The notes beneath the pieces are model-generated. The model was not told the origin of the DNA. It made no database searches and saw nothing but the letters and a program-made list of their open reading frames with translations. From Reclinomonas americana ATCC 50394 (lineage: Eukaryota): a stretch of 35,747 nt of DNA. The stretch spans positions 1-35,747 of the forward strand of contig PS015216.1 of assembly GCA_048213135.1 (NCBI GenBank), in the 5' to 3' direction. Shown here piece after piece: positions 4,451 to 35,747 of the stretch; position 1 is the stretch's first letter; the number at the start of each line of letters is the position of its first letter. A program made the translations under genes and the position numbers.

Positions 4451-4501
<51 letters not shown>

Positions 4502-7500
4502 CCCCCCCCCGCCCCGCCGCGCCCTCTCTCTCTCTCTCAAACACACACACCAATGGGGTTCGCTTTGGCATCCGGCCACATGCGCATGCTGTAGGGTCCA
4601 CGTCGCAACTCGCCGACGTGATCAATCAACTGGCAGTTGACCCAGGCCACGGGAATGTCACGCATCACATTGAACCCTTGCAAGTCGCCCGTGCCACTGC
4701 GTAAAAAGGCTACCAATCAGAGAGGGTAGGAATGTCATTGTGACAGGCGCAACCACGCACGTAAACAACAAGCGGTCATCTCTCCTGTATGGCCGTGCGT
4801 ACAGCGTGAAACACAGACGTGTTTCCTGTGCGACAGTGTCAGCTAATACACACATCACGCAGAGTCGCCAAGGTCCCCACAAACAAACCTTGGACAAATG
4901 TGAGAGCATCGTGTCGTCGAACATGACCCACTCGTTCCACCTCGCGTTACCGTCCAGCGGTACCGCGCGCGATGTCTTTGGCGCGCCAATCAGACTGTAA
5001 CCGTGGTGCCTGCGAGTGCGTATAGGTGAGCCGAGCATCACATGGAACATAGCGTTGGGACGCAACAGCTCAGCCACAATGTACACGGAAATCTCCTCGG
5101 GTGCGCGGCCGAGACTGTGCAGAGCCGTCGACGACGCCACGAGATTGTCGACACCAATGAGCTTGAAGCGGAACGGTCGATTAATGTCCCACATGCTGAT
5201 CTGCTTCAGTTCGTGCCAGTCGTGCTGCTGGATGTTGATTTGCTCGTGGAAGTAGCTCGGCTTCATGTTGATTTCGTACATGATGCGTGACTAGAGAAGA
5301 AGGAGGAGAGGGTGGAAGTGAGTACAAAAGCCATCTCTTCTGAAGATGGAGAACGAGGGAAGACGTTACCTTGGCCGGTGCCGTCACTGGCTTCACGGTC
5401 CCGCGACGCACCAAACTCAACTCGACCGTCACCTTTTCGTTCTCCTGCTCACGCAGATCCTTCAGTCGCCGCCGCACGTATTCGAATTGGTACATGGGGA
5501 ACGAGCCGAAAATGAACTCGGCGAGACCGGTGACCTGTGCGCACAAGAGGTGAGAAGACAAAGAAGAGGAGACAGTGGAAGAGAAAGGCGAGTCACCTTG
5601 AACACGTAGTCCTCCACCGTCGAGTTCTTCCGAGACGCCGTGCGATTGAATTTTTGCACGAGCTTGGACATGATGTCGGTCGGTGTGTCGGTGACTGGCG
5701 GGGGAGGTGAGGTGTGAGAGAGGAGCAAGGGAGAAAGGGGGAAGAGAGAGAGAGAAAGAGGAGAAGAGAGAGAGAGAGGAGAAGCGAGAGAGAGAGAGGA
5801 GACAGAGAGCAGAGGAAAGAGAGAGAGAGAAAGAGAGCGGCAGACAGTCAGATGGGCAGACACACACAGAGACACAAAGAGAGAGAGAGCGTGTGTGTGT
5901 GAGAGAGAGTGAGAGAGGTGGAGAAAGACCGATATACAAACAGGCAGACAGACAAGAGAAAGAGAGAGAGAGAAGAGGAACAAGAGAAAGAGACAGTCAA
6001 AAGTTGGACAAGAAGGGAACCAGACAGATAGACATCAGAAACGAAGAGAGAACAGAAGAAAGCACAACATCAATACACAACTGTTGCAAGGAATGGTCTT
6101 TCGCTGAGCCTCGTCTGGCAGCGTGACACGCACAAGGAAGCGTTGCGGGAAATTGGCCGGCAACGCTTCGTTGCTGAGGTACACAGGCATGTCGGGATCT
6201 ACGGCGACACGCACAAACCACTCTCAGACTCAAACAATGTGCGCACCAAGGAATCACAGATACAACTCACCGCTGCTCGCACTGGCACGACGCTCTGCCC
6301 CATCGCCCTTGGTTGCTGCTGCCGCCGCCGCCTCGGCGGCCGCATTGATGGGTCCGTATTGCTCACTGAGCTCGTGAATGGAACGCAGTGTCTCGCGGAA
6401 GCGCTGCGCCTCGCGCGACACCACCTTGAACTGCGGGCCGATCATGTCGGCGATCTCGCTGAGGGGGATGTCGTCGGGCTTCACCTCGGCCGCCCGTCCA
6501 ATCGTATCCTGCCGCGAGCGCAGCATGCGCCGTCGGTGCAGCATGCCACCGTTTCCGTCCTCCGCCACGTCAATGCCAGGTGTGCCGCCGTTGCCGTTTG
6601 CGCGGAGGAGGGATTGACTGTGCAAGGGAGGGGAGAGAGAGAGAGAGAGAGAGCGAGTGAGGAGAGTGAGGAGAGACAGCAGAGAGAGGGATGGCCGGAA
6701 AAAGGAAAAGGAATGAAAAGCAATGGCACACAAAACGAATGAATGGCAGCGCTTGTGTAGGCAATCATTGTGCAAAAGAGGCAGAGGAATGATGCGGAAT
6801 GATGCAGCAGAGCACACAAGCATGATGGAGAAAGAGTAGAAGGTTGTGAGGAGAAGCTGCTCGGAACTCGCGGACACTCAGTGGGAGAGGGAGAGATTGA
6901 GACTGTGTGTGTCAGAGAGAGAGTGAGAGAGTGAGAGAGAAAGACGCAGGGCTGCAGAGAGAGGAGTCGGAGCACAATGGCAACCAAGAGACTGCACAGT
7001 GCACATGCGAGACTGAGAAAGAGGAGAATAAGAGGAGCGGACAGTCACATCAGACCACTGCAGTGAGTGAGTGTGAGTGTGAGAGAGACGCAGGGCTGCA
7101 GAGAGAGAAGTCGGAGTACAATCGCCACTGAGAGTGAACACAGTGTGCACACAGGATTGAGAATGAGGAGAATGAGCGGACAGTCTCATCAGAGTGAACT
7201 ACAGTGAGTGCGTGAGTGTGCGTGTGTGTGTGTGGAGAGAGAGAGAGAGAGAGCGCAGAATGCATCAATCTCTCACAGACACACTCCGATGCATTTGACT
7301 GCACACACACACACACACACTCTCACTCAAATTCACCGATGTGGTCGCGACGAAGGCGACACTGCTCCTCCCGCACTCGCCGCACCACTCCCAGACGACT
7401 CTCCATGTATCTAACACACACACACACACACAGTCAGTCACACACAGACAGAGTTATGTGTGTGTCTTGTGTGTGTGTAACTCTCTGCTGCTGCTCCTGC

Positions 7501-7689: not shown

Positions 7690-9338
7690 TTACACTACTT
7701 GATCAAGTTGCGCAGCGTCAAACAACTGCGGGACAGGCGCCTCTGCACGTCGCCACATGAGCAGCGGGTGCGAGGCCGGAACTTCGGCTTGTGGACCCAT
7801 CAAGCCCGTTCTACGCAGCATCTCACTGTGTAGAGTCATTGCTGCAGTGCCGCTCAAGGCAGCGGATTGGCGGTCGCGCAGGAATTCAAAGTGGTCGGCG
7901 GAGACGGTGTTGTCGCCGTGCTGCACGTACCAGTAGAGCGTGGGCGCGTCGAGCATGATGATGCGGTGGGATTGGAGGAGCTGGTGCATGGCGACTGTGT
8001 CCTCGCCGCGGTTGAGGTTGCCGTAGGGCGGCATGGCTGACTTGCGGCACACGAGTGTGTTGTCCTGGTGCCACATGACGGAGAAGCGGAGGGTCGGCGG
8101 CCACTCGTTGGCGTGCCAGATGATCTCGCGCGCCAACGTCGATGCGGCCACGGACTCGTCGGCGAAACGCACAATGGCCTGCATTTGCACGGCCAGGCGA
8201 TCTGGATCGTAGATATCGTCGTCGTCCCACACGGCCACGTACTCGCCACGTGCCATCTCCACGGCAAAGTTGCGCTGCGTGCCCAGTGTCATCTGTTCGC
8301 GCTCCTCCTCCGACGAGGTGCGGATGCCAAACAGGCGGATGCGTGAGTCGCCCAGGCGCTGCAGCACGCTGTCGAGCATGCGTTCCGTCGTCGGGTTCTT
8401 CGTCACAATCACCAGCTCGCGATTGGCATACGTCTGCAGCTGAAACAGGTACACCGCGCGCAGGGCGTGCCAGACGCGTCGATCGGTGATCATCAGGCAC
8501 GACACGAGCGGCAAGTCGGGCGATTCAGGCGAAAAGTACGGCGCCGGGAACGTGCGACTGTCGCCAAACATGATACCGCGCGCAATGACCAGTACTTCTG
8601 TTGGGTTCGCGGGCGACGGATGCTTGTCCGTGATCAGATAGCCAACATCGGTGAGCGCTGAGAGGCGAGCGCGCGTGTGTGAGCGAGTGAGTCAAGCAAC
8701 AACGAAACACACCGAACGAACCACGACCGCTGCCCTCAATCAACTGCGCAGTGACGAATCAGTGAAGATGACGCGCGTTGAGAGGGGCGACTCAAGAGGA
8801 GGGGGAGGAGGCACGCACCCAGTCTCGCATGTTCTCTGTGATGGGTGGGTGCTGCAGCTCGTTGGCGGGTGTCTCCTTGGCGACCAGTTGCCACGAGCCG
8901 CGTCCAATGCCTCCAATGCTCTGTCCGTCTTTCTCAGGGTCGGGAGGAGGTCCACACACGAGCAGAGTGAAGGTGTCGGTGAGAGGGTAGTAGATCCACC
9001 AGCGGAGAGAGCAGGTCGAGCGCAGGAAGAGAGTCGGGTGTCGTGTGCAGAAGCATGCGCGCGTCTGTGCACAGAGTGAGTGTGTGTGAGAGGGGGAGAG
9101 AGTGTGCGCGTAATCAGCGCACCTCTTCGCCTGCAATGGACACCGCATGGTCGACAGCCACTGTGCGCGCGCACATACACGTCATTCAATGCACACATAG
9201 ACACTCACACACAAACTGACGCAACATTGCGCATTGCTGTGTCTCACAAGGCACACGCGAGGTGACAAGGAGGAGGAGGAGGAGGAGAAAAGGAAACCGC
9301 AAATAACACACGGCCTCTCTTCTTCTCTCCGCAATCAT
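7690..9338 (-). CDS. GT2/GT-A fold glycosyltransferase paralog 1 with N-terminal signal or anchor; exons about 9338-9209, 9160-9123, 9064-8819, 8743-8713, 8657-7690
   Basis: LPLVSCLMIT, ELVIV, TLGTQRNFAVEMARGEYVAVWDDDDIYDPDRLAVQ (DxD motif), RGEDT, LYWYVQHGDNT; first exon MIAERRREAVCYLRFPFLLLLLLLV. The first donor site is uncertain. Confidence 0.85.
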
Positions 9339-9460: not shown

Positions 9461-11147
9461 TCACTGCACATTCGTTTCGTTGTTATGCAGCGATGGGGAT
9501 CCGGATATCGAGGTCTGTAATGTGGACGTCGACGTCGTCTGCTGAGTCCAGACGAGGAGCGGGTGCGAGGCCGGAACTTCGGCTTGCGGGCCCACCAGGC
9601 CAGTTCGCTGCAGCATATTGGCATGCAACGTCTTGGCAGAGAGGCCGCTCAGGGTGAGCGAGCGGAGGCCGAGCAAGGCGTTGACATGCTCGGTCGTCAC
9701 CGTGTTGTCGCCGTGCTGCACGTACCAGTAGAGCGTGGGCGTGTCGAGCATGATGATGCGTTGCGCCTGGAATAAGTGGTGCAGCGCGGCCACGTCCTCG
9801 CCGGTGTCGTGTTTGCTGTAGGGCGGCATCACCGACTTGCGGCACACCAGTGTGTTGAACGCATGCCAAGTGTCCGTGAAGTGGATCTGCGGCGGCCACA
9901 CGTTGGCGTGCCAGATGATCTCACGGGCGAGTGTGGAGGCGGCCAGCGAGTGGTCGGCAAAACGCACAATAGCCTGCATCTGCACGGCCAGGCGATCCGG
10001 ATCGTAAATGTCGTCGTCGTCCCACACGGCCACGTACTCGCCGTGCGCCATCTCCACGGCAAAGTTCCGCTGATCGCCCAGCGTCATCTGCTCGTACTCC
10101 TCCTCCGACGATGTGCGAATGCCGAACATGCGGATGCGTGAGTCGGCCACACGCTGCAGCACGCTGTCGAGCATGCGCACCGTCGTCGGGTTCTTCGTCA
10201 CAATCACCAGCTCGCGATTGACATACGTCTGCTTCTGAAACAGGTACACCGCGCGCAAGGCGTGCCAGATGCGTCGATCGGTGATCATCAGGCACGACAC
10301 GAGCGGCAGGTCGGGCGATTCAGGCGAAAAGTACGGCGCCGGGAACGTGCGACTGTCGCCGTGCATGATACCGCGCGCGACAATCGACACATCACTCGGA
10401 TCGCTGGCTCCGTCCACCTTGTCGGTAATCATGAACCACACGTCGGTGAGTGCTGAGAGGCGAGCGCGTGTGTAAGTGAGCAAAAAACTGAGGAGCATCC
10501 CCCAGCAAGGCAATCACGCACCTCGCCCGTTTCCTCCGATGAGCTAACGAATGACCATATCAAGGAGTGAGCATGCATGCAGGCAGTCGCGCGTGTGGGT
10601 AACAAGACACACTCTCACGCACCCAGTCACGCATCGTATCCGTGAGTGGAGGGTGCTGCTGCTGCTGCTGCTCCTCAACTGGTGTCTCTGCAGTCACCAG
10701 TTGCCACTCGCCACGCCCAACGCCACCAATCGACTTTCCGTCCATCGCTGGATCGACGGGTGGCCCACAGAGGTGCTCAGAGAAGGAGTGTTGCTGTGGA
10801 TTGTAGGTCCACCAGTGGAGAGAGCACGTGGAGCGCAAGAAGAGTGATGGATGTCGTGTGCAGAAGCATGCGCGGGTCTGCGCAGAGTGAGAGGNNNNNN
10901 NNNNNNNNNNNNNNAGAGAGAGAGAGAGAGGGACAGCACACACACAGATGCACCTCTTCGTCCGCGATGGAAACCGCGTGGTCGACAGTGACTATGCGCA
11001 CGAACGCAGGCACAAGTGAGCAAGCAGTTCACACATACGCACACACACGCATTCACTCGCGCAACTTTGTGCATTACACAGAGACACAAAGAGTATGAGA
11101 AGAAAGCAGAGAGGGAGGAGGAGGTGAGGCAGCCAGTGAGCGCACAT
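9461..11147 (-). CDS. GT2/GT-A fold glycosyltransferase paralog 2 with signal peptide; exons 11147-11057, 10991-10954, 10877-10623, 10543-10522, 10452-9461
   Basis: Near-identical catalytic exon to paralog 1 (GEYVAVWDDDDIYDPDRL, TGEDV); first exon MCAHWLPHLLLPLCFLLILFVSLCNAQ; exon phases consistent. Confidence 0.88.
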
Positions 11148-14168: not shown

Positions 14169-15726
14169 TCACTTGGTCGTAGTTGTCCTCTTTTTCTTCT
14201 TCTCAGTCACCAATTCCTCCCACCACGGCTCGTCGCTGTCGCCAACGGGCGCCGATAGCCAGACATGATGGGCGGGTACTGCCGCGGTGGGGCCGACCAG
14301 TCCCGTGCGCTGCAGCAGCTGGGCCAGCAGAGTGCGCGCCGTCAGACCGGACCACTCCACCGACATGACGCGTCGCATGTCGTCAAAGTGCTCCGCCGGC
14401 CACAACTGCGCACCGTGCTGCACGTACCAATACAGCAGCGGCGCGTCGACAATGAGCAACGAGTCGCGTGCCACAATCGTGCGGACGGTGCTCGTGTCGC
14501 CGCCGCGTGTCAGCAAGCCGTAGGGCGGGAGACGTGACTTGCGACACAGCAGGGTGTTTTCGTGGATGAACACAGCGGTGGCCGCCAGCCGCGGATCGTC
14601 GGGCAGCGGTGGTGTGACGTTCCACAGGACTTCGCGCGCCAGTGTGACCGCCGTGGCACCCTGGCGGAGCAGCGCGCCCATCTGCACCGTCAAGCGGTCG
14701 GGATCGTACACATCGTCGTCGTCCCACACGGCAATGTACTCTCCGCGGGCCATGCGCACACCCAAATTGCGCTGGTGGCCGACGGTCAGCACCTCGCCGC
14801 TCTTCTCTTGGGCCAGCACGAGCCGAAGACGCGCGTTGCCCGTCAGCTCCTGCACGCGCTGCAGAATGGCCAACGTGCGCTCATTCTTGGTGACAATGAC
14901 CAGCTCCCGATTGACATACGTCTGCTGCTCGAACAGGTAAATGGCGCGCAACGCCAGCGCCACTCGCCGATCGGTAATCATCAGACACGACACCAGCGGC
15001 AGCATCGGCGACGACGGCCGGTAGTACGGTGCCGGCAGATCTCGACCATCGCCCGGTAGCACACCGCTGTGCGACAGCACCCCCTCCGCACCCGACACCA
15101 CGCCAAACCACAGGTTCTTCAGTGCTGCGACGACTTGGTTTCAATAGAAGAGACAGGGCGACAGGAGCAACAACAAAACGACGGCGTACCAGTGCCTCCG
15201 CCGTCGATCCGCTGCACAGCAGGTCAATGAGTGCGCAGATCACCAACAACGACAACGAGTAAGGAAGGACTCACCCACTGCCGCATGACATCGTCCGCGC
15301 TCACTGCTGCATCCCCATCGTCCTCTGGCACACGCACCCACACGCCACTGCCTGGCCCACTCGCCGCATCGCCCCGACACTGCGTCGCCTCCAGTCGCCC
15401 CCCCGATCGCCGATGCACCGCCCACGCCCGCTGCAGACAATTGTTGGAGGCCGAACGCAACGCCATCTCATCACAAGAGCACCGTCGCAGCTGAGGCAAG
15501 CACGCATGAGTCAAGACGATGCAACAGCAAGAGAGAAGAAGAAACGCAACTTCTTCGCCGTAGACAAAGACAAACGGAGGTGGAGGATCGTGTGTCACTG
15601 AAGAAGCGAGTCAGTGCCGCACTCACTCACTCACACACACACACACAGACCTTCCATCGCCACTGCCACCACCACTGCCACCGTCAATAACACGACGAGG
15701 GCGATGGTGGCGCAAGGCGATCTCAT
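14169..15726 (-). CDS. GT2/GT-A fold glycosyltransferase paralog 3 (more divergent) with signal peptide; exons 15726-15651, 15597-15551, 15490-15275, 15211-15190, 15124-14169
   Basis: LPLVSCLMITDRR, TVGHQRNLGVRMARGEYIAVWDDDDVYDPDRL, LYWYVQHG; first exon MRSPCATIALVVLLTVAVVVAVA; same five-exon layout as paralogs 1 and 2. Confidence 0.87.
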
Positions 15727-15796: not shown

Positions 15797-16092
15797 ATGG
15801 TGGAGAACGAGCGCGTATCGCGTGTGTGGCTCACGGCGGAGACTGTGACGACGGTGGTGCTGGCTGTCTCCACGCGCATTCTGCTCAAGACGGTGCTCTC
15901 GGGTGGAATGGTCAGTTGGACAACTTTTGGTGCAGAAGGATAGGAAGGCGATTAGGCGGCGCCTAAGTGCGCGCCTGTGATCGCCTTCTGCACACACTCA
16001 TTCACTCACTCGTTCGCACATACATCAGCCACATTGCCTTTCTGCAACTCGGTCGCACAATCATTTCTTCTGTTCACACTCACTCGCTCACT

Positions 16093-16145
<53 letters not shown>

Positions 16146-18886
16146 CGCTCTCTCACTCACTCATTCGCTCTCATCAGTCACCCTGTTACTCTCACTCCTG
16201 AATCATTCTCTCCTTCACTCTTCATCATCCTCCTTGTCATCAGTGACTCACTCACTCTCTCACGCACACTCACTCTCTCACTCATTCGCTCTCATCAGTC
16301 ACATCTTCGTCATTCTCGCACCTAAATCATGCTCGCCTTCACTCTTTCTCCTCTTCTCCCTCCATTCGCCTTCTCCCTCTGTTCCCCTCCTTCTCTCCCC
16401 TTCTCTCGCTCTCTCTCATCGCCAACGAGAACCAATTTGCGATCGCCCTTCGTTGTTGATATTGCAGCGTTTGCATGTCACGTTCCTGTTGCAATGGATG
16501 ACGGTGGCACTGGCGCCAGTGTTCTACGCGGTCGCGGTGTTGCGCAAGAGCAAGTCGGCATCGCCCGGGTGCGTTGTTCTTGTCTCCGAAACAGTACACA
16601 CTCGTGACTGAAAGTCGCACACTGGCGCAGCGATGCGAAGAAGGCAGCGGAGAAAGGTGGAGAGGGCGAGTCGCAGCAGAAGAAGAGTGGCGTCTCGTCG
16701 TGGCGGTTTGCCATTGTTGCCGCACTGGAGACAACAGCCTCGGTGCGTGCGTCTATCTGTCTATCTCTCGCATCTGCGAATCTTGTCTACTTTTTCCTCA
16801 CTGCCGCCGCTGCAGCTCATGTTTGTGTGCTCCTCGGCACACCTCTCCGGCCCGCTGGCCTCCCTGCTGCAGCAAGCCATTGTGCCCATCACGATGGCCC
16901 TGTCGTACATGATGCTGCGCGAAAAGTACACCAGCGCGCAGCTGACCGGCGCCTTTATCATCCTCGTCGGCATCGGCATTGTCATGGAGCCGCACGTCAG
17001 CGGGACGTCGCTCACCCTCTCCGTCCTTCCGTGGGCGCTGCTGTGTCTGGCCAGCACTGTGCCGATGGCGCTGGCCTCCATTGTGAAGCAAATGATTTTC
17101 GAGGACGAGGTTATTGGAGTGTTCTATTTTGTCGCGCCTCACCTGCATGCTCACCCGCTCGTTTCGCAGATGGACGTGTGGGAGTTGAATGCTCGCGTGT
17201 GCTCGTGGCAGGTGGTGCTCGGACTGCTGACGCTGCCGATCACGGCCTCGTTTGACGGTGTGGCACTGGCCGACATTCCGTCGGGACTGTTGCGTGTGGC
17301 TGCTGCTGCTAGCTTGTGTGTGTGCGTGGAGTAAGTGGTGCTGACGGATAGTTGTGAATCAGGTGGCATGGCTTCGAGTGCTACGCGTTTGGCGTCTCCG
17401 GCAGTGCCGAGGCTTCGGTGAGTGTGGTGGCGGCTGTTTTTGTGTACCTCGCTCCTAATTCTCATCGCTTGCCAGTGCGCTGGCGCCTTCTGGAGCGTCA
17501 ACATGTACCTGCTGGTACTCGTGCTGGTGAATGTGTCACTGACGGCCTTGCTTCGTGACGGAGGCGCCGGGTTGGCGGCCATTGTCAGCACACTCTCGTT
17601 CCCGCTCACCAACATTGCCTTCGCGTTGCCGTTTCGTTCACCCGACCACAGATCTCTCTTTCCCTATTGGCATCTCGCTCAACTATTCTGAGCAGTGCAA
17701 TCATGGGCGAGCATGCGCAGCGACTGAATGGATCCGACATTCTCGGCCTGTCCTTCATCCTGGCTGGCCTCGTGTACTACCGATTCCACAAGACGTTTTT
17801 CACGTCCACTCAATCGGTGAGCCGTTTGCGATCATCCATGATGTGCCGTGCAGCAGCTCACTTACTCTGCCGCAGATCGTGTCGCCGATACCAACATTGA
17901 AACGTGCAGCGTACTACGCGTACCCGACCGTGGAGTTGATGACGGTGATGCCGGAGGAGGACCTGGAGACGGTGGTTAATCTGGAGATCGGTCACAAGAA
18001 GCACGGCTTTATTCTGTACACCAGTTGAGGCTCGCGTTGATACCTGTATGTGCATTTTCATCCTTCTCTCAATCGTGTGGCAGGTTCGCCCACCGACGTC
18101 CGTGGTGTCTCATTCGACTGTGTGATGTTTGCGCACGGCTCGGTGCGGATGCGCTTCACGGATGAACGAAGTTGCGTGCACACTTTCTGCCTCTCGATCA
18201 GCTCTGGCGAGTTGCCTGGTGTCTGAGTTTGCTTGTTTGACGCAGCACGTCACAACCTCAACAAGCCGGCCATGGTACACCTGAACAATATTCTACCGCC
18301 GACCGGTGTCAATGTGGAGGCCTTCCGCGAGTACATTCGTGTGGAGCTCGAGAAGCAGGATGTAAGTCCAGAGCACTGTTTCCTTCCTCCCCCCGATGCT
18401 GATAGATTCGGTGCAGGCTGTGTTTGTGGACCTCACCGATGAGGGCGAGTTGATCTTTGGCGTGCCGGACTTTGACCACGGGTATGGCTTCTCGCCGACC
18501 GCAGACGCCAACGTGGAGGAGCTCGTGGTGCGTCTGTGTCCTGCAAACCTGCACTGCTGAGAGAATCACTGAACGCATTATTTTCTATGTAGCGCGCCGC
18601 GCTGGCAAAAGAGGAGGCTGCCACCGAGCACCACTATGAGAAGCCGTCTCCGGTTCCGTCAATCCAGCAGTTGCTGGCATCAGAGCCGGCTCCCGAGCCG
18701 GTCGAGCCGCCGCCGCAAGAGCCACCAGCAGCGGAGAAGGAAACGTCGACGGCCGCCGCATCAGCTGCGTCGTCCGACAAGGACGGTGGAGTAAGGTGAG
18801 TCGGGAGTAGTCCGTCATGCATTTATGCTTTTGCCTGACTTTTGGTGTATGCACGCAGGCGTCGGCGGCGACGAACGGGTGACTGA
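15797..18886 (+). CDS. CRT-like (chloroquine-resistance-transporter-like, DMT superfamily) membrane transporter with a C-terminal Nup98-like peptidase S59 domain. Exons: 15797-15910, 16468-16568, 16631-16742, 16816-17109, 17170-17288, 17363-17417, 17476-17630, 17696-17816, 17876-18023, 18084-18170, 18246-18361, 18417-18527, 18593-18795, 18859-18886
   Basis: CRT/CLT-like segments AHLSGPLASLLQQAIVPITMALSYMMLREKYTSAQLTGAFIILVGI, STVPMALASIVKQMIF, MDVWELNARVCSWQ, WHGFECY, STLSFPLTNIAFALPAIMG, with many hydrophobic helices; in-frame splicing continues into the S59-like domain. Confidence 0.8.
17876..18491 (+). other. Nup98/Nup145-like autoproteolytic (Nucleoporin2, peptidase S59) domain, four exons, HFS motif degenerate
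   Basis: Spliced peptide PTLKRAAYYAYPTVELMTVMPEEDLETVVNLEIGHKKHGFILYTSSPTDVRGVSFD...NLNKPAMVHLNNILP...EKQDAVFVDLTDEGELIFGVPDFDHGYGF follows the Nup98 domain pattern (GYYTxPS, FTIGRKGYGxIxF, DVxxLxLD, GLNxxAxVTL, KQGAxF, GxWxFxVxHFSxYG) over its full length. Recognised by eye. Confidence 0.75.
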
Positions 18887-19035: not shown

Positions 19036-23970
<4,935 letters not shown>

Positions 23971-24054
23971 GGGAGTGAAAATGAGTGTGTGACGGACGGA
24001 GTAATATCATGTCCTACTCTCGATATCTTGAGTGATGGCGGTGAAGGTGTGGTG

Positions 24055-24416
<362 letters not shown>

Positions 24417-24444
24417 GTACGACGNNNNNNNNNNNNNNNNNNNN

Positions 24445-25009
24445 TCTGCAAGTGCGATGGCTCGAGGGACACACCAGGGAGGTGCGATGTGTCGCCGTCA
24501 CTCCCGACGGTCAGTACATTGTGAGTGGCGGCGATGACATGACTATTCTCGTGTGGCCTTTGGCAAGTGGACAATTAGTAAGAGAGTTGGCGGGGCACAC
24601 GGGGCTGGTGTGGTCCGTCGCCGTCGCTCCCGACGGTCTCCACATTGTGAGCGCAAGTGCGAGTCCGGACAAGACGGTGCGTGTGTGGTCGCTGGCTGGC
24701 GCAGAGGAGGTGCAACGGTTGAAGGGACACAGTCGGCCAGTGACAACTACCGCCGTCTCACCCGATGGTCAGCACATTGTTAGCGGCGGCGATGACAAGA
24801 GTGTGCGCGTGTGGTCCACGCCACGTGGCCTTGCTCGGCGGGAGCTCGACCTCGCCAGATTGGCCATGCAGGCCGTGCAGGAGGAGATGCAGGCATGCGC
24901 GGAGGTGGAAGTGGACTCGCGTTGCCTTGCCGAGATGGTGCTGCGCTGTTTCATTGTCGAGGATGCCGAGGTCGTGGTGTTTCGGCGGCCGTGGGAGGTG
25001 GAGATGTGA
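24445..25009 (+). CDS. WD40-repeat protein, 5'-partial (three visible repeats plus a helical C-terminal tail)
   Basis: Three GH...V..VAVsPDG..IVSg.dDkt+rVW repeats with no introns; the 5' end runs into an N gap; stop TGA at 25007-25009. Confidence 0.85.
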
Positions 25010-25118
25010 ATGTATCTGGAAAATGAGGCATGGTGAACAACACCATATTAATTAGCCAAGTGCAAGAAATTGCAATAGCTTGACAGCACAGTATGCAAAC
25101 AGTGCGAACACGTCGTTT

Positions 25119-25242
25119 CACTGCAACAACAATAACAACTTTAATCCAAACAGCGACACAGCTGCATATGATCACCATCTTGAGTGAGCACCAGAAACTC
25201 AGACATCACGAAAAATTGCTTGCTGTTGTTGTTGGATCAGTG
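25119..25242. mobile_element. 124-bp internally deleted (MITE-like) copy of the downstream CACTG element
   Basis: Left inverted repeat (25119-25202) and left subterminal sequence are joined at TTGCT (25220-25224) to the outermost 18 bp of the right end, followed by the same flank (aagttcctactatgggacac) as at 35726-35745. Confidence 0.8.
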
Positions 25243-25264
25243 AAGTTCCTACTATGGGACACAC

Positions 25265-26019: not shown

Positions 26020-26177
26020 AGGTGGACTCGCGGTGCCTGGCCATGCAGGCCGTGCAGGAGGAGATGCAGGCATGCGCGGAGGTGGAAGTGGACTCGCGGT
26101 GCCTTGCCGAGCTGGTGCTGCGCTGTTTCATTGTTGAGGATGCCGAGGTCGTGGTGTTTCGGCGCAGATATGAATGA
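26020..26177 (+). CDS. Second copy of the WD40 gene C-terminal tail (fragment after an N gap)
   Basis: LAMQAVQEEMQACAEVEVDSRCLAELVLRCFIVEDAEVVVFRR is nearly identical to 24860-24987; the 3' flank is also duplicated. Confidence 0.75.
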
Positions 26178-26283
26178 ATTTGGAAAGTGAGGCATGGAGA
26201 GCAACTGTCGTACTGTTTGGCCAAGTGCAAGAAATTGCAATAGCTTGACAGCACAGAAAGCAATCAGTGCAAACATGGCGATT

Positions 26284-26362
26284 CACTGCAACAGCAACAA
26301 CAACTTTAATCCATACAGCAACACAGCTGCATGGTGATAACCATCTTGCACCAGAAACTCAG
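26284..26362 (+). repeat. Left terminal inverted repeat
   Basis: cactg...taatccatacagcaacacagctgcat...ccatcttg...caccagaaactcag. Confidence 0.85.
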
Positions 26363-26682
26363 ACATCACGAAAAATTGCTTGCTTCACGGATCCGGACCC
26401 AGCTTAAGCTTTGCTTTGTTTGCCTGGCACGCCCAAACGCGTCCAAGTGTGCACACCGTCTGTGAAACTCGGAGGAGTTGGTAAACGTTTCACAACAATT
26501 CTCGCTGTCGTGAAAATGTTGGCCGCAGTCGGCTCGGTACGCGGTCGCACAACGTTGCACTGCAAACCCGCACCGACTGTCAGTCGACTGTCAGTGTCGC
26601 GAAATCGTCGACCGATGTGCCTTCTGTATGCTCACACAGTCCACAGTCGACGTAATTCGTTCACTTTTTGCCCCTCGCTGAC

Positions 26683-29600
26683 TCACGTGGTGCAGCGGCT
26701 ATCGCGGCCGGCTTGCGGCGCGCGAGCGGCAACAGCAGCACGTCGAGCACTGGAACGTGCACGGGCGTCCATCGCCGTATCCACAGGAACCTGGCCCCAC
26801 GCACCACCGCCGGCATGCCACGCATACAGTTCGTTGTCTTTGCGTGATTCCACCCAGTGCCGAAAGCCGATGCTCTTGGCCTGCTGTGCCGCCTTGCGGA
26901 GCTCTTGAATCGCCTTTCGGCGCCACCGCGCCGCAGCCTCTTCCACGTCAACGTCGTCGTCATCCTCCTCCTCCTCCTCCACCACCTCATCCACCTTCCT
27001 CACTCCATTCTCCTCGTGATCTTCGCCGTCCCTCTCATCTGCGTCCTCTGCGGCCACCTCGTCACCGACGCCAACAGAGGCCGTGGCGCTGTCACTCGCG
27101 CTCGACCGAGTCGCGAGTAGGTGGGTGTGCGAATGAGGAGCCGCCGCACTTGCACTTGCCATTAATTCGTGGCTGTGGCGACTCGGACGTTGTTGCTGTC
27201 GCCGCGGTCGCAGACGAGCGAGGATCAACGCCTCCTCACCAGCAATAGTTGAATTCCCGCAGTCGTCGTCGTCGGCGTCGGGATTCTCGACGCCCCAGTC
27301 TTTCACCAGTGCATCGAACTGAAAACGCCGACCATCCAGTCGATTGTAGCGGCCGTGGAGGGAACAATCACCATCTTCTCCGGTGTAGCGGTGCTGTGCA
27401 CACATTTCACGCGCACGAAGGCAGTAAGCAAGCAGAAGCACACATGGCCACGGCAGATACAGTCGCGGCGACAAGGAAATTACCTTGATGGCGAAGCATC
27501 GATTACTGCCACTGCGCTTGCCAGCCACACGATGCACCGAGCATTCTCGGCACATGTGCCGGAACTGCGCAAAGCTGGAGGGGAACAACACTTTCACGTC
27601 GTCGATGATCACAGCATTCGCTAGGCGGTATCTGTGTCGCACGCGCAGAAGTACGTGAGACAACATGCGAAACAATCATCCTCGTCATCGACAGCAGCAC
27701 GACGCACACAAAGCAGCGTGTCAGTGGATCAAAGCGCGCCTCGCCTGCTTCGTCGTACACTGGAATGTACGGACGGTACGCCACCATGTACCGCTCGCGC
27801 TCGAGTGGCTCGGAGGCCCGCACGTGACGCCGTCGGCCAGTGTAAAACCCCTCGATCCGGCAGTGCAACACCGGGAGACTCGCGGAGCCCACTGTCTCCT
27901 GCAGAGCTGACGGTGCGTCANNNNNNNNNNNNNNNNNNNNNNNNNNNNNNNNNNNNNNNNNNNNNNNNNNNNNNNNNNNNNNNNNNNNNNNNNNNNNNNN
28001 NNNNNNNNNNNNNNNNNNNNNNNNNNNNNNNNNNNNNNNNNNNNNNNNNNNNNNNNNNNNNNNNNNNNNNNNNNNNNNNNNNNNNNNNNNNNNNNNNNNN
28101 NNNNNNNNNNNNNNNNNNNNNNNNNNNNNNNNNNNNNNNNNNNNNNNNNNNNNNNNNNNNNNNNNNNNNNNNNNNNNNNNNNNNNNNNNNNNNNNNNNNN
28201 NNNNNNNNNNNNNNNNNNNNNNNNNNNNNNNNNNNNNNNNNNNNNNNNNNNNNNNNNNNNNNNNNNNNNNNNNNNNNNNNNNNNNNNNNNNNNNNNNNNN
28301 NNNNNNNNNNNNNNNNAACATATTCGTTCTGCTTCAAGTCGCGACGCTCCTCACTGTGCACACCGCCGACACGCTTGTTATTATGCGCACCGCAACAGCA
28401 CAGCATCCAATGAGCCCCCATGCGTAACTGGTGTAGCTTCTCGCCAACTGCCTCGGACACGTAGCAGCACATGCCAGCCTGCTTCTCCTGCTGGAGAGAG
28501 TGCGCCAGTGCGTGGGTCTTGTAGGATTCGACGGATACACCATCGCCACACGCTCTGCGCATACGTGTTCGTGCCGTGAGTGAGGAGCGTGATCACAATT
28601 GCGCGGCATTCGACGACTCACTCACCCAATGACGGCTCGCAGATACCAAATGGTTCGCGCGTACGCTGCATCGTCACTGCTATCCCGATGAGTGGCCATC
28701 GTGTGCGAATAGTAATCCGCCAGCGCTGGAAAGAGCAGCAAAGCTGGCTCATCCTCCATCAACGTGAACAGCTCGGCCTCCGAATACGACGGACAGTACA
28801 TGACGAGCACCGCTGCGTGAAGCGAGCATTCCCAGTGTGAGTGCTCACGCACAACTCCGAATGCATGCGTGTGTGTATGTGTGGCTTGCTGGCTGGAAAC
28901 AGCCTCACCTCGCAGTGCAAACATGATGACATGCGTTACGGCGATCCAGTCTCGCCCAAGGAAGGAACCACAGTTGTTGGCGAATGAGTAAATGACGCGA
29001 GCCAGTGTCGGATCGTCGCCAGACATGGCACTTATGAAATCGGCCAGGTCCGACATCATCTAGCCGACGATGCTCTTCTCGTCGACGAGGCGCAAAAAGC
29101 AGGTCTCGAGTGCGGCGCGGAAACGGACAGCAATGCCCTCAGCAACTATGTGACGATAGATGGGCAGCAAGATGTCTCGATGAACCTGCATGTGTCGGTT
29201 GTGAGTTTTTGAGGGCGAGGGAAGATCTCAAACACATACACAGGCACGCACGTTAAAGTCCGGCAAGTCGGTGACGAGTGCCGATGCAGGGTTCCTGTCA
29301 CCTGCCACACCCAGTATAACCNNNNNNNNNNNNNNNNNNNNNNNNNNNNNNNNNNNNNNNNNNNNNNNNNNNNNNNNNNNNNNNNNNNNNNNNNNNNNNN
29401 NNNNNNNNNNNNNNNNNNNNNNNNNNNNNNNNNNNNNNNNNNNNNNNNNNNNNNNNNNNNNNNNNNNNNNNNNNNNNNNNNNNNNNNNNNNNNNNNNNNN
29501 NNNNNNNNNNNNNNNNNNNNNNNNNNNNNNNNNNNNNNNNNNNNNNNNNNNNNNNNNNNNNNNNNNNNNNNNNNNNNNNNNNNNNNNNNNNNNNNNNNNN

Positions 29601-32600
29601 NNNNNNNNNNNNNNNNNNNNNNNNNNNNNNNNNNNNNNNNNNNNNNNNNNNNNNNNNNNNNNNNNNNNNNNNNNNNNNNNNNNNNNNNNNNNNNNNNNNN
29701 NNNNNNNNNNNNNNNNNNNNNNNNNNNNNNNNNNNNNNNNNNNNNNNNNNNNNNNNNNNNNNNNNNNNNNNNNNNNNNNNNNNNNNNNNNNNNNNNNNNN
29801 NNNNNNNNNNNNNNNNNNNNNNNNNNNNNNNNNNNNNNNNNNNNNNNNNNNNNNNNNNNNNNNNNNNNNNNNNNNNNNNNNNNNNNNNNNNNNNNNNNNN
29901 NNNNNNNNNNNNNNNNNNNNNNNNNNNNNNNNNNNNNNNNNNNNNNNNNNNNNNNNNNNNNNNNNNNNNNNNNNNNNNNNNNNNNNNNNNNNNNNNNNNN
30001 NNNNNNNNNNNNNNNNNNNNNNNNNNNNNNNNNNNNNNNNNNNNNNNNNNNNNNNNNNNNNNNNNNNNNNNNNNNNNNNNNNNNNNNNNNNNNNNNNNNN
30101 NNNNNNNNNNNNNNNNNNNNNNNNNNNNNNNNNNNNNNNNNNNNNNNNNNNNNNNNNNNNNNNNNNNNNNNNNNNNNNNNNNNNNNNNNNNNNNNNNNNN
30201 NNNNNNNNNNNNNNNNNNNNNNNNNNNNNNNNNNNNNNNNGACATCTTCCTCTGCGTAACCACTTCACGTGTGTGGTCTTGATTGCGCCAAGCCACCTTC
30301 GATCGCACGCCGACATACTGGTTGCGGACAAATACAGGGTGCCGCAGTCTGCGGGCAGTGGATAACATTCGATCCAGTCCTGCAGCCAGCATGCACCACC
30401 GTGCAGGTGAGGATTACGCAGCACAACGGGAGTTCTCCATTCCACACACTCACCATGGCACCACCAGCAGTGTAGCTGGCGAATAACCGCAGCAGCCTCC
30501 TGCGCCTCAGGGCCGTCGGCTGAGTGGAACAGCAGGTCGGCTACCACCCACAACTTCCGGCCATTGATCTCCGCCAGAAAGCCATTCCGAAGCCGGTTCA
30601 TCGAAATGGTGAGCTGTTTGTATGCCGACATGTTGCTCGTCTCTGCAAGACCATTCTCGAGCGTAAGCACCTCGAGCGTAAACACGGCTCACCACTACCC
30701 GCGTGTACGTATGCGCACCTGGTGGCGTGAGACCAACGCACGGGAAGTAGCGGGATTTTCCAGAGCGCAGCTCATCGGCCGGCCGATTGACAATCGCCAG
30801 GTGCAATGCACCTGTTGGTCGCTGCGCGCGTGTGCTCAGTGACTCTGCATCAGCGTGACAACGAATACAGTCAGTGCACGCATGCTGCTGGCAACAAACA
30901 AGTCCACATCGCTCACCCTTGAAATCATCATAGTCTGTCTTTACAAACAATACCACCACTTCGTCCGCGCCGGCCTCTGCTGCCCTGACCTCCATCGTGT
31001 TATCATACTGCAATCAAGACAGTCTCTCTCTTAGTAACAACTGCGAAATGAGCAGCCGAGAACAACAGCAGCCTACCGTCAGCGCGACACCACTCTCAGT
31101 GCCGCGAATCTGATCGTCGGTGCATTGCACAAAGGCCATCTTGCCGCCGGCAACAACATTTGTCGGAATGACGCACAGCAATGGGACGCTGCGTGGACGA
31201 TCGGCGGAAAGCATGTCCATCAGAACACTGGACTGGAAACTCGTCCGAGCACCGTCCCGGGATTGAGTGTGACTTCCACAACAGCCGTCGTTGACGGATG
31301 TCTCGGCCACACCAAGAGGCAAGCAAAGCGCTGAGCCACATCTGTTGCTGGTTCACCCCAAACGCTGACATTATTCTGCCGTGCAAAGCACTGTTTGTCA
31401 GCGCTACCGCAAGAGACAACAATCAAACATGAATTGGCGCAACTGAGGGATACGGATGGCTGTCAAACAACCACAATTGCACCACGGTTCTTTTGACTCC
31501 GTCGGGCCCCACCTGCCACATGCGCAAGCGTACACGTTGGCAACATGAGATGCATGCCAGCACAAACGACAGTGGATGATGATCAACAACTCAACGACAT
31601 CCCACGAATTCAGCACCTTGGCAATCACGTCCGCGCCGTTAACAGCAGCGCACACAAAAGAGTTCTTCCAGAGAGCGACGCGCTTGCCGTTCCCGAGGGT
31701 CGCATACGTGACAAGAGCATGCAGCTCCTTCGTCTTCACTCGCGCCCCTGTCATGGGCCCGCGACGAATAACGCTGCCGGGTGTCTGCGGAGGTGCCGGG
31801 GGTCGTTGGTCAGGGAGACACACACGCTGGGGCGCGTTGAAACACACAATACCTTGCCAGCAACATGCAAGTGACGAGGTGTGAGGCTATCCAGTGTACC
31901 AGGCAGTGCCAGCTGACGAGCAATGGTCTTCTCCAGCCGCATGTAGTGGCCTGGTTGCTCGTTGAAGTGCGTGACGCTCTCCACATACTCCGACGCCGCA
32001 AGCCCAAATGTGCTCAACTTGCACCGCCAGTCGGATATCTTCGGGGTGGTGTCCTTGTTGAAGTTGGCTCGGGGATACGTGAGAAGCGCATAAAGCAGCT
32101 CTTGTTGGCTGTGACTGAGTTTCACCAGCTCGATGAATTGCATGAGAAGGGCGTGTTCGAGTGATTTGGCAGGCGCGAACGGGTTGTCGGGCGGGATGAC
32201 TTTCTGTGCGCACAGGCAAACTCAGGCACTCGCATCACCAGTAGTAACATTAGCATGATGACGCTCACATGCGCACGTACCATCTGCTTGGCAGTGAATT
32301 CCTCAATCATGTTCACAACGCGCTGATGCTCCTCGTCGGTGAACGCCTCCAGCTCGGCAGCAGCCCGCTTGAGGTCGCGCTGAAGCTCTCGCTCACTCTC
32401 GTCAGCGGCGTACGCCTCATAATCATAGTTCTCGTCCTCGTCCTCGTCCGAGCTCGGCTCAGCCTCTTCCTCGACGCACACATAGTCTGCATCACAGCGT
32501 GAGAATGAACCAACAGGGATGTCACGAAGCAGCAACCGCAGCAACACACCGTCGCTTGCACAAGCACTCTCCACATCCTCTTCCTCGTCCTCGTCATCGT

Positions 32601-33262
32601 CATCGTCCATGGGGGCTGTAGCGGTGGACTCACAGAGACTGCCGCCACCGTCGATCATCACCTGATCGTTCTTCGGCGCAACGCGCTCGAGGACGCCATC
32701 AACTGGCATCTCATCATCGTCGCTGGTGTCTGCGGATGAGAAACGCAGCTCCATCGGGGCATCAGCAATCTCACGAGCCAGTGCGTCGTCGGCCTGTCGC
32801 TGCCACACATCGTGCGGCCCATGTCTCGCGAGCTGAATGCGGTGGCTCTGTGTGCATGTGTGAGAGCATCAGCACCACGGAAGGGAACGCACACACACAC
32901 ACACATACAAACACACACACATGCCTGTGCACATCAGCGCAGAGCGACGTCGAGACAAAGATGATGAAGTCAATCCGCGAGTTTGAGCTTTTGTCCGTCA
33001 CGCACACACGCACCGACACACACACGAAGAGCGCGCCCATGCACACCTTGCTGTTGATGTGTCTGAGAAAGTTGCTTGAGCGATGAGGGGCCATTGGTTT
33101 GCGGCCGCAACACCAACAGCGCCACTTATTGGAGGGCACCGCGTGTTTTCCTGTCGAGTGATGGACTCGCTTTACCCTTGCTAACACGCCTGCGAGCGCA
33201 TCGAGCAGGCCTACACTGTGTAGACTCTGTGCAATGACCTGGTTGATGGCACTGTCGGGCAC
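26683..33262 (-). pseudogene. Intron-rich CMC/CACTA(Plavaka)-like DDE transposase with N-terminal zinc finger; interrupted by two N gaps and an in-frame TAG
   Basis: Ordered motifs: CWCC...SSNFLRHINSK|SH (zinc finger); NPFAP; KTDYDDF (about 30930, candidate D1); GALHLAIVNRP..LR...VGLTPP; LRNGF...LLFHSADGPEAQ...CWWCH (candidate D2); LPDFN|V...HIVAEGI; GRDW; KTHALAH...SEAVGEKLH (candidate E); HMCREC. In-frame TAG at 29060-29062. Both gene ends are uncertain. Confidence 0.72.
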
Positions 33263-33590
33263 CGTTCACAGTGCAGCGCGAGAGGAAGAAAGATGAGATG
33301 GAGAGGAGACGTCAGATGAGGAGGGAAACGTGTGTAGAGAAGGGCTGCTCGCGTTCGAGCAGTGCACTAATGTACCGCAGCGCGTACTCGATTCATCATC
33401 ATGAGCTTGCGGTTTGATGATGAAAACAGTGACTCCATCGCCGAGTCCACGGCAGCGGCGCCATTCTCGCCGGCTGCTCTGCGCTCCAGCTCAGGCGGAA
33501 GCTCCTACAGCAGTTGCGTGCGTCGTTCGCAGTTGGGTAACGTTGTCGAACGTTGTTGCTAAACTCCTGCGCCTCTTCATTACAGGTGAG

Positions 33591-34321
33591 ATGATGATGA
33601 TGATGAGTCCCAGGAACGCCATTGTGGGTGGCGGTGGTTTAGGTCCCAGCATGCCTGTGTCTGCTCGCAAGCGAGGAGCCCATGGCTTCGAAGACGACGA
33701 CGGCTCGCAGCCGCCCTTCAAGAGGCGGTCCATGTCACAGTACCTGTGCAACGCCGGCGTCCCTACGGACAGTGATGATGTTCGTGCCCTTGGCCTGTTC
33801 ACCGAGGAGGGTCACTGCAAGGAGAAGAACCGCACCGAAGTACTGATGGTGGTCAACGCACAAATCGTCAAACAGCTGGTTGACACAAACAAGCTGTTGG
33901 CTGCGATGGTCACGGAGCAGACCCAGTTGACCAAGACCACAAACGTGATTGTGAGCAAGACTACCAAGATGCGCGAGGACATTGAGGCGATGCGTCACGC
34001 AGCATGTGAGACGGTTGCCACGCTAGACAGCAAGGCAGTGGTTTGTGTCGTTCGATTGGTGCCGTTTTCTGTTCACCGTGTGGACCCCACTCTCACTTCA
34101 TCGCGGTACAGAACGCCTTTGCCAACGTGGCGCGCTTTTCAATCCGCCGCAGCCTTGACAGTGGTGACTTTGCGACACTCAAACGCTGGCACAAGAAGGA
34201 CCCCGACCTCATCCAGGAAACTGTGATGAACACGCCCAGGCTGTCAAGTATAGGGCTATTGTAGAGACTTATGACGGGGCGAAGGAGGTTGCTGGGAAGG
34301 TACGCTGCTTGGACGTCGTTT

Positions 34322-34357
<36 letters not shown>

Positions 34358-35138
34358 ATAGACACACGCACATACACTCCCTCCGTCCTGTGTGTGCGCG
34401 TAACGTAAGCCGATCACCTGCATCGTGCAGATTGCGTCGAGAATCAACTCGGCCCTCTCCAGTATCACCAGCAGAATCAGCAATGAGTGCCTCGTTGCTG
34501 GTGCCGCTGCTTACCGCTCTCTTGATGAATTCAAGCAGTTTTTGCAGCGCACCGGAGTCGAGGATGCCAAGGTGTGTTTTTAGCCTGATTGGCGCAGCGT
34601 ACATTCTTCCTTCTTTATCGGCGCCAACACGTTGACACACAGGTGGCGAATGCAAAGGATGGCCGTGCTGAGGCTCTTTCGGCTGCCTTTGCAAACCGTG
34701 AGCAGTCGCGTGTGGTCATTGGAATGATGGTTTGTGGGCGGGAGCTTGAGCGTTGGTCGTTGGGTGCAGCCCACACTCACCGTACTGGTGATGTGTGTGC
34801 AGGTACTTTCAGCTATCACCTCCACCATGTTGACGGCAAGAACGCGACGTTTGGGAAGATTGCTAACTGGCTGTACCAGCATTGGCTTTTACTTCTCTCA
34901 TCTCCGGAGACTGTTTTCCGTGCTCTGCGGCTCGGAGGGGAATACGGCCTTCATGGTGCATCTACCGTGGGAGTTCTTGTTTCCGACGGCAGGTGGGATG
35001 GAACACGGTGACCCTGTGGATCTGGCCGCACAGGCAGCTGGCAGTGACGTTGTTGGGAGCTCCTCGAGTGACGATCGCGGCGTGGGAGATGAGCTGGAGG
35101 AAGCGGAACGGGAGGAAGATGACGGTGATCTTGACTGA
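33591..35138 (+). pseudogene. Accessory gene of the transposon, unknown family (NLS-like motif, coiled-coil, acidic tail), about five exons with an apparent frameshift
   Basis: RKR...PPFKRR; heptad-like IVKQLVDTNKLLAAMVTEQTQL; GT-AG-bounded exons at about 34111-34299, 34431-34571, 34644-34729 and 34804-35138. The reading frame hits TAG at 34262-34264, while a shifted frame (KYRAIVETYDGAKEVAGK) reaches the donor in phase. Confidence 0.55.
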
Positions 35139-35636
35139 CGGATCCCGATCTGGAGCGGGATATTTTTAGCAGTTTTTCGCAGCAGTGCAGACAAACAGAC
35201 AGACTTAGAAGATGAGTACTGTATAGTACATGGTGCAGCACTTGCTTGCGGATTGTGGCAGTGTGGGAGCTGGTGCAGCGGGGTGCGCGGGATTTGGCGA
35301 TATAACCGGCCCGACGATTGCAACTGATTCGTCCAGTCGTCGTCCAAACGATTGTCGGCAGTAGCCAACGCTGGCAAACGTTTTCACCAGAGATCTGGGC
35401 AAAACGTCGCAACGAGGGCTTAATCAGGTACAAGTCGGGAAAACGCTGTAAACTAATTGGTCAAACGCTGTCGTATCGATGTCTACGTGAGATTTGCCGA
35501 CAATTTACCGAGATTTCTGCCTTATACAGGACATGAGGCGCCCAGGAATCGGTAGTCCCTCTTCCCAACGTCGGACGCACTCGCCGTGTATACATGCAGC
35601 TGGTGCCCGTTTGGTTGTTGGTAAATGAATTGTTTG

Positions 35637-35725
35637 CTGAGTTTCTGGTGTTCACTCAAGATGGTGATCATCATGCAGCTGTGTTGCTGTTTGGATTAGT
35701 AGTTGCTGTTGTTGTTGGATCAGTG
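35637..35725 (-). repeat. Right terminal inverted repeat
   Basis: Reverse complement reads cactgatccaacaacaacagcaactactaatccaaacagcaacacagctgcatgatgatcaccatcttgagtgaacaccagaaactcag, matching 26284-26362 and 25119-25202. Confidence 0.85.
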
Positions 35726-35747
35726 AAGTTCCTACTATGGGACACAT

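Follow-up and report, generated by a model that had tools for sequence, protein, structure and literature searches.

The 35,747-nt stretch of Reclinomonas americana ATCC 50394 analysed here (contig PS015216.1, forward strand; hereafter the window, with positions counted from its first letter) carries at 26284-35725 a two-gene DNA transposon of about 9.4 kb, bounded by terminal inverted repeats (TIRs) and of the autonomous, cut-and-paste type. Its TIRs, its termini, a deletion derivative at the same locus, the motif order of its large protein and the families recovered by a language-model search of the Atlas together make a DDE transposon of the CMCT clade its likely identity. According to one published source (PMC12730594), this clade unites EnSpm/CACTA, Mirage, Chapaev, Transib, Plavaka, ESTA, Lanisha and RAG1. 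The termini fit EnSpm and not Plavaka, while sequence similarity to any named family seems to lie below detection; the element probably represents a deep, unsampled lineage of the clade.

The element opens with CACTG (26284-26288) and closes with CAGTG (35721-35725). A gapped alignment running from the termini inward to ..CTCAG pairs 26284-26362 with 35637-35725 over some 80-90 nt, and contains an ungapped core of 42 nt (26307-26348 versus 35657-35698) that is 93% complementary. Compared by blastn, the two arms of the long element are 88.5% identical over 61 nt (E 6e-16), and the inverted repeats stand well above chance, with E values ranging from 6e-16 to 5e-27. The arms differ by about 10%, the left one being short of some 6-7 nt (GAGTGA) present in the right one, and the repeat can be lengthened by one T/A pair at either end, to TTCACTG..CAGTGAA. 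The initial annotation, made by inspection of the letters, had proposed the same coordinates, a CACTG start and imperfect inverted repeats of 80-90 bp, all of which alignment and blastn bear out. A WD40 gene of the host precedes the insertion, which lies 130 bp downstream of it.

Close to both ends, the pentamer AAACG/CGTTT is 5-11 times enriched (regions 35300-35725 and 26284-26700): it occurs seven times in 426 nt on the right and three times in 417 nt on the left, versus about 1.5 times per kb elsewhere, the motif having been picked post hoc, after inspection of the sequence. These pentamers are only a hint of putative binding sites. No exact 11-12-nt k-mers were found as subterminal repeats. 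The left subterminal region also holds a palindrome made of two tandem copies of CGACTGTCAGT (26574-26595). Neither Rfam nor tRNA scanning gave a match anywhere in the window.

Outside the long element, blastn detects its end sequences at one other place in the window, a 124-bp copy at 25119-25242 that, like the assembly gaps and the in-frame TAG described below, had no place in the initial annotation. The two parts of this copy meet on a 5-nt microhomology, TTGCT, which corresponds to 26380-26384 and 35703-35707 of the long copy. In the long form, the right arm (35637-35702) has 65 nt more, which match the inner left arm and are missing from the 124-bp copy; because this homology is present only in the long form, the short form derives from the long one and the reverse is excluded. 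The 124-bp copy is the product of an internal deletion of about 9.3 kb at a microhomology. The same 65 nt of additional arm eliminate another scenario that we considered, in which a 9.3-kb element inserted into a 124-bp miniature inverted-repeat transposable element (MITE) and generated TTGCT as a 5-bp target-site duplication (TSD). The deletion may have resulted from interrupted gap repair after excision or from a microhomology-mediated event; internal deletions of this kind give rise to the Ds-type and dSpm-type derivatives of cut-and-paste elements.

On either side of a gap of 755 N, at 24861-25264 and 26020-26400, the window carries a version of the WD40 gene's 3' end, of the intergenic DNA and of the left end of the element. 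The left flanks of the two copies are 98% identical over 127 coding nt and about 88-90% identical beyond, and on the right, end and flank are identical at 44 of 44 positions (25220-25263 versus 35703-35746). The two versions of the locus stop at the same flank base, the short one at the 755-N gap and the long one where the window ends. The shared flanks and this common break-off indicate that the same locus is present twice. We lean towards an assembly artefact, with two haplotypes placed in tandem, as the origin of the duplicated flank with the short copy: the two versions share 21-22 flank nt without a difference before they break off at one base, and the repeated WD40 3' end is nearly unchanged between them. 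However, identity falls to about 88% in the left non-coding flank and the left arm, a high divergence for alleles, and an old segmental (tandem) duplication would fit this identity equally. The choice bears on the surroundings of the element and not on its nature.

The larger of the two genes (gene 1) lies on the minus strand and comprises at least 17 exons, with some 1,280 visible codons and an unseen part in two assembly gaps inside the element (27921-28316 and 29322-30240). This open chain of GT-AG exons corresponds to the minus-strand gene with many short introns that had been described initially. All introns are GT..AG and measure 53-199 nt; all acceptors are cag. From the ATG at 33438 to the first gap, ten introns of 68-199 nt leave 700 codons open; between the gaps, three exons and a fragment provide 257 codons with one in-frame TAG (29060-29062); and past the second gap three exons provide 356 codons up to a TGA at 26683, an openness that is partly circular because splice sites were picked to keep the frame open. 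Single open exons of 189, 236 and 117 codons have chance probabilities of 0.013, 0.004 and 0.07, respectively, at a stop-trinucleotide frequency of 0.0228 per position. A frameshift that we considered near 31223-31352 was dropped, the acceptor at 31233 leaving the frame open.

Read directly from its N-terminal side, the gene 1 product displays D, D, C(2)C, a candidate xxH, H(3)H and E. The residue proposed as first catalytic D stands in TDYDDFK (YDDF, exon 31007-30917). It is followed by a region with an NxP motif reading ..GALHLAIVNRPADELR.. (GA.H..I.N.P...R, exon 30844-30719) and then by ADGPEAQ, in which DGPE provides the candidate second D and is followed, 16 residues past that D, by CWWC in the same exon (30642-30454). 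IYRH, the candidate xxH, in the context ..IYRHIVAEG.. (exon 29185-28909), comes after C(2)C, from which a gap of 919 N separates it, and before H(3)H. Finally, HALAH precedes SE/GE by 16-20 residues in ..KTHALAH..SEAVGEK (exon 28554-28317). Every one of these motifs had been listed in the initial annotation and could be located; catalytic residues were assigned by position only, and the His of IYRH is a putative counterpart of that in xxH.

As set out in the same source (PMC12730594), the signature of the CMCT clade consists of two D residues followed by C(2)C, xxH, H(3)H and lastly E, together with 5'-CA..TG-3' termini, and TSDs in the clade measure 2-5 bp; within it, EnSpm-like elements have 5'-CAC..GTG-3' termini and 3-bp TSDs and Plavaka elements end in TGT..ACA (PlavakaA) or CATCA..TGATG (PlavakaB). 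The ends of the present element, CACTG..CAGTG, agree with the terminal part of this signature. Gene 1 has both the C(2)C and the H(3)H, which are weak markers when taken alone, since the bare ordered signature (D-x(10-25)-CxxC ... H-x(3,4)-H-x(10-25)-E) arises in 377 of 5000 shuffles (7.5%) of the same 484 residues.

The N-terminal part of the protein has a CxxC..H(5)H zinc finger, and acidic tracts occur in exons 32847-32281 and 27393-26683. Both features had been seen at the outset; the finger proves to be split by an intron, exon 33226-33047 being spliced to position 32847. Searched as an unspliced open reading frame (ORF) without the last His, it matches Pfam zf-BED with an E value of 0.0047 and 17.4 bits, under the gathering cut-off of 20.6.

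We propose that the element would work in the manner of En/Spm-type or Transib-type cut-and-paste elements. The BED-like finger would bind the element ends. The D of exon 31007-30917, the D and C(2)C of exon 30642-30454, the xxH of exon 29185-28909 and the H(3)H and E of exon 28554-28317 would belong to an RNase H-like core, in which the two Cys and two His could form a zinc site stitching the core together, as in RAG1. The transposase would bind the inverted repeats of about 85 nt, possibly along with the AAACG-rich subterminal DNA, and cut at the CACTG/CAGTG ends, the element being reinserted elsewhere.

A search with the ORF covering the first D and the NxP motif, among 1,835,955,588 representative proteins that stand for about 15 billion, returned a single match, P0001 (E 8.8e-15). 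This is an unnamed singleton of 160 amino acids from the Logan collection, encoded on a 6,187-nt contig. P0001 matches exon 30844-30719 (exon G) at 71% and exon 30642-30454 (exon H) at 60%; its 23 residues between the two matches do not align with the read-through of the window's intron, and its end coincides with the window's donor site after ..CWWCHG. That P0001 matches exons only and ends at a donor site argues that these exons are real and conserved in a second source. Prokaryotic contig matches to exon H, of 30 amino acids at 48% (Streptomyces) and 19 amino acids at 68% (a metagenome-assembled genome of Oscillospiraceae), were put down to chance. Both bacterial matches to the ADGPEAQE pattern (L001 10001-10090; L002 5793-5849) fall in shadow, alternative or non-coding frames of ordinary genes.

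When P0001 was submitted to the Atlas language-model search, 23 of the 30 nearest clusters were unnamed. The named neighbours were RAG1_RNase_H (0.91, three hits), Transposase_21 (0.90, two hits) and Plavaka (0.89, one cluster), so that all named sets shown for P0001 belong to the CMCT clade and RAG1/Transib is indicated as much as Transposase_21. We regard these neighbours as a lead that may point toward a distant relative, and as the sole independent pointer to the clade.

Several results weigh against the CMCT assignment, beginning with the same search. Its recognition value for P0001 (2272) falls below the tool's mark of 2300, and the features shared with the neighbours (146-160) are under 170, which by the tool's own yardstick denotes a distant relative or chance; a second search, with the H(3)H..E exon, gave no usable match. 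Pfam returned no transposase family for 29 translations (15 + 4 + 10; exon ORFs, in-phase exons and P0001) at E cut-offs of 1 or 10 (10 for P0001), each piece covering only 30-120 residues of a domain. The initial annotation had called the element CMC/Plavaka-like and suggested a comparison with the Transposase_21 and Plavaka profiles. This comparison, conducted exon by exon only, found no match to Transposase_21 (PF02992) or Plavaka (PF18759) in those pieces or in P0001. The CMCT motif order and the EnSpm-like CAC..GTG ends lend that label partial support, at the level of the CMCT clade and short of CMC proper; its Plavaka part conflicts with the termini.

Searches of PDB sequences at E values up to 10, using P0001, A3 (an alignment of P0001 and window exons) or the H(3)H..E exon as query, likewise gave no RAG1/Transib match; a lone match at E 0.61 was rejected as spurious. 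Word-seeded protein searches yielded 210 candidates with the ORF carrying the second D, none at E<=0.01, and 3051 candidates with A3, none at E<=10. AlphaFold modelled A3 with a pLDDT of 32.4 and a pTM of 0.22, values too low for the model to bear on the fold. To these adverse points we add the shuffle frequency and the partial circularity of the exon chain mentioned above, the assembly gaps, which cover the stretch from C(2)C to xxH and that after E, and the presence of only one full-length copy in the window.

The target site is a further point on this side. No TSD of 2, 3, 5 or 8 bp is found at this single insertion site, in line with the earlier remark that none was evident: the full copy is flanked by ..gcgatt / aagttc.. 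(att/aag over 3 bp, tggcgatt/aagttcct over 8 bp), and the short copy by ttt/aag, again without a 3-bp duplication. The test concerns one site, whose two versions have flanks about 10% diverged.

This copy of the element is probably inactive and an old resident. Its in-frame TAG, its arms about 10% different with insertions and deletions, and the lack of a recognisable TSD all argue for inactivity. The TpA odds ratio is 0.44 in the element and 0.35 in the host, with CpG at about 1.0 and no CpG loss, and this equality of dinucleotide signatures suggests long residence. The two versions of the locus are about 12% different in non-coding DNA. A reassignment of TAG as a sense codon finds no support, the scarcity of TAA and TAG being explained by TpA depletion (rho 0.35-0.44). 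In the window as a whole, TGA trinucleotides (1139) are about five-fold ahead of TAA (176) and TAG (214), and among 27 long stop-to-stop ORFs TGA is the closing codon of 21. No in-frame stops occur in the alignments of the host gene for an eEFSec-like protein (a selenocysteine-specific elongation factor).

The second gene (gene 2) is transcribed divergently from the first, as had been noted initially, and is made up of five plus-strand exons between 33591 and 35138, with about 358 codons open and GT..AG introns of 199, 131, 71 and 73 nt. The outward-facing start codons of the two genes are separated by 152 bp, presumed to be a bidirectional promoter. Gene 2 has no family match in Pfam. By analogy with TnpA of En/Spm, which is not evidence, its product would most likely be an accessory factor.

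The initial annotation leads to the strongest alternative, which we consider possible but doubtful: that the element belongs to CMC proper as an ordinary if divergent relative of the EnSpm/CACTA or Plavaka kind, in which case Repbase or Dfam would already list it under EnSpm. CACTG..CAGTG termini are of the classic CACTA type, whose inverted repeats are usually shorter than the 80-90 nt found here. With EnSpm/CACTA the element shares CAC(TG)..(CA)GTG ends, the succession of D, D, C(2)C, a candidate xxH, H(3-4)H and E, a pair of genes as in En/Spm, short motifs concentrated close to the termini and a derivative formed by internal deletion (compare dSpm), and both Transposase_21 and Plavaka clusters are among its Atlas neighbours. 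Yet no exon matches the Transposase_21 or Plavaka profile of Pfam, RAG1_RNase_H clusters score at least as high as Transposase_21 in the Atlas, and the 3-bp TSD is not seen. The element further departs from EnSpm/CACTA in its BED-like finger, in a candidate xxH that reads IYRH where the initial annotation gave DxMH as usual, and in a second gene that is transcribed divergently and is not a product of alternative splicing. The ends point in both directions: they fit the CAC..GTG of EnSpm and differ from the TGT..ACA or CATCA..TGATG of Plavaka, as these are given in the source (PMC12730594).

Plavaka, a fungal group (PF18759), resembles the element through the CMCT signature and the one Atlas cluster; besides the termini and the lack of a Pfam match in the pieces searched, the selenocysteine machinery of the host separates it from fungal Plavaka. 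Transib/RAG1 is comparable in that its termini begin with CAC and that RAG1_RNase_H clusters rank with the closest named sets that the Atlas gives for the region around the second D; unlike Transib/RAG1, the element matches no PDB chain in our searches, lacks a 5-bp TSD, has a second gene and encodes its large protein in an intron-rich gene.

It is very improbable in our view that the element is a DDE transposon from a different superfamily, such as a hAT-like one, in which C(2)C and H(3)H would be coincidental. BED fingers are typical of hAT transposases, and the sub-threshold zf-BED match in the N-terminal part of gene 1 is the only near-threshold Pfam family; the ease with which shuffling produces the bare signature also speaks for such an origin, and hAT elements share cut-and-paste transposition with TIRs and Ds-like deletion derivatives with microhomology junctions. 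Against this, no 8-bp TSD is found, the C-terminal exons seen show no Pfam match to the hAT dimerisation or core domain and bear C(2)C/H(3)H motifs instead, the named Atlas neighbours are all CMCT with no hAT among them, and the termini are CACTG. Also very improbable is the notion that the region is not one mobile unit and that host or unrelated genes lie between an inverted pair of MITEs, the 124-bp copy being the real element: there is one full-length copy only, the 124-bp copy with its two termini could pass for a MITE and no TSD delimits the long unit, but the 65 further nt of right arm derive the short form from the long one, both forms lie within the same flanks, the motif order and the Atlas neighbours of the enclosed gene are transposase-like, and the one relative of this gene is an unnamed fragment, a common situation for masked repeats.

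Returning to the CMCT reading, we may also hypothesize that the element and P0001 form a deep lineage outside EnSpm, Mirage, Chapaev, Plavaka and Transib as these are now defined, a proposal that we advance tentatively and hold to be possible rather than probable. Table 1 collects the features of the element and of its short copy.

Table 1. Features of the transposon and of its deletion derivative in the window
Feature	Positions	Strand	Remarks
Left terminal inverted repeat	26284..26362	.	starts CACTG
Weaker AAACG cluster, left subterminal region	26435-26490	.	
Gene 1 last exon, acidic tail	26683..27393	-	stop TGA 26683-26685
Gene 1 exon	27484..27631	-	
Gene 1 exon after gap	27708..27920	-	
Gene 1 exon, H(3)H (HALAH) and candidate catalytic E (..VSEAVGEK..)	28317..28554	-	runs into N gap 27921-28316
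Gene 1 exon	28626..28812	-	
Gene 1 exon, IYRH..AEG	28909..29185	-	in-frame TAG 29060-29062
Gene 1 exon fragment after gap	29252..29320	-	
Gene 1 probable exon	30241..30379	-	runs into N gap 29322-30240
Gene 1 exon, DGPE (candidate second D) and CWWC (C(2)C)	30454..30642	-	60% to P0001 over 67 amino acids
Gene 1 exon, GA.H..I.N.P...R	30719..30844	-	71% identical to P0001
Gene 1 exon, candidate first catalytic D (..TDYDDFK)	30917..31007	-	
Gene 1 exon	31077..31232	-	acceptor at 31233
Gene 1 possible small exon	31429..31512	-	frame also open without it
Gene 1 exon, 56 codons	31617..31784	-	
Gene 1 exon, 117 codons	31853..32203	-	
Gene 1 exon, 189 codons, acidic tracts	32281..32847	-	
Gene 1 exon, CxxC...H part of BED-like zinc finger	33047..33226	-	last H from next exon
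Gene 1 tentative first exon	33388..33438	-	ATG 33438-33436; 5' end is a model only
Spacer, 152 bp, between outward-facing start codons of genes 1 and 2	33439..33590	.	presumed bidirectional promoter
Gene 2 exon 1, 150 codons	33591..34040	+	begins ATGATGATGATGATG
Gene 2 exon 2	34240..34299	+	acceptor cag ends at 34239
Gene 2 exon 3	34431..34571	+	
Gene 2 exon 4	34643..34729	+	
Gene 2 exon 5, acidic C-terminus	34803..35138	+	stop TGA 35136-35138
AAACG motif cluster, right subterminal region	35346..35467	.	seven AAACG/CGTTT within 35300-35725
Right terminal inverted repeat	35637..35725	.	ends CAGTG
Left flank of short copy	24861..25118	.	repeats 26038-26283, left flank of full copy, including WD40 gene 3' end
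Internally deleted derivative, 124 bp	25119..25242	.	about 104 nt of left end plus last 22 nt of right end
Right flank of short copy	25243..25264	.	identical to 35726-35746

The window that surrounds the element is a eukaryotic draft scaffold of about 58% G+C with seven runs of N and intron-containing host genes. The eEFSec-like gene lies at about 228-1852 on the plus strand, and its presence indicates that the host uses selenocysteine. The best of its 2001 matches, in animals, green algae, stramenopiles and slime moulds, are only 43-55% identical, which suggests a host without a close relative in the protein collection searched; the eEFSec-like protein of the window itself is absent from that collection. 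Further host genes are PI3-kinase-like, Kelch-like and WD40. In the WD40 gene beside the insertion, three repeats of about 126-132 nt (24451-24828; 69-73% identity) correspond to WD40 repeat units. Three tandem glycosyltransferase-like paralogues (..GEYVAVWDDDDIYDPDRL..) occupy the minus strand at 7690-8691, 9461-10513 and 14169-15140; the first two, 1,795 bp apart, share blocks that are 75-100% identical, and the third stands at 71-84%. Microsatellites of the types (CT)n, (CCT)n, (GT)n and (GA)n are dense both between and within genes (1-180, 4410-4540, 5700-7000, 16070-16420 and 23340-24420), several of them coinciding with assembly gaps of 20 N.

RAG1, which assembles the antigen-receptor genes of vertebrates, has its ancestor among the CMCT transposases, and to our knowledge the deep branches of the clade are poorly sampled outside plants, animals and fungi. 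The worth of the present element, known from one locus, lies in classification and annotation and not in a new mechanism. If the proposal of a separate deep lineage is true, this lineage would combine CACTA-type ends, long TIRs, a BED-type finger, a RAG1-like core stitched by C2H2 and a divergent partner gene, and it would form a new branch near the root of RAG1's parent group, in a eukaryotic lineage without a close relative in protein databases. A lineage that has such a C2H2-stitched DDE core and is yet missed by family profiles would help to root the CMCT group and may show which of its features are ancestral, be they end sequences, zinc fingers or partner genes. It would also improve repeat annotation in under-studied eukaryotes, where elements of this kind remain hypothetical genes or unannotated DNA.

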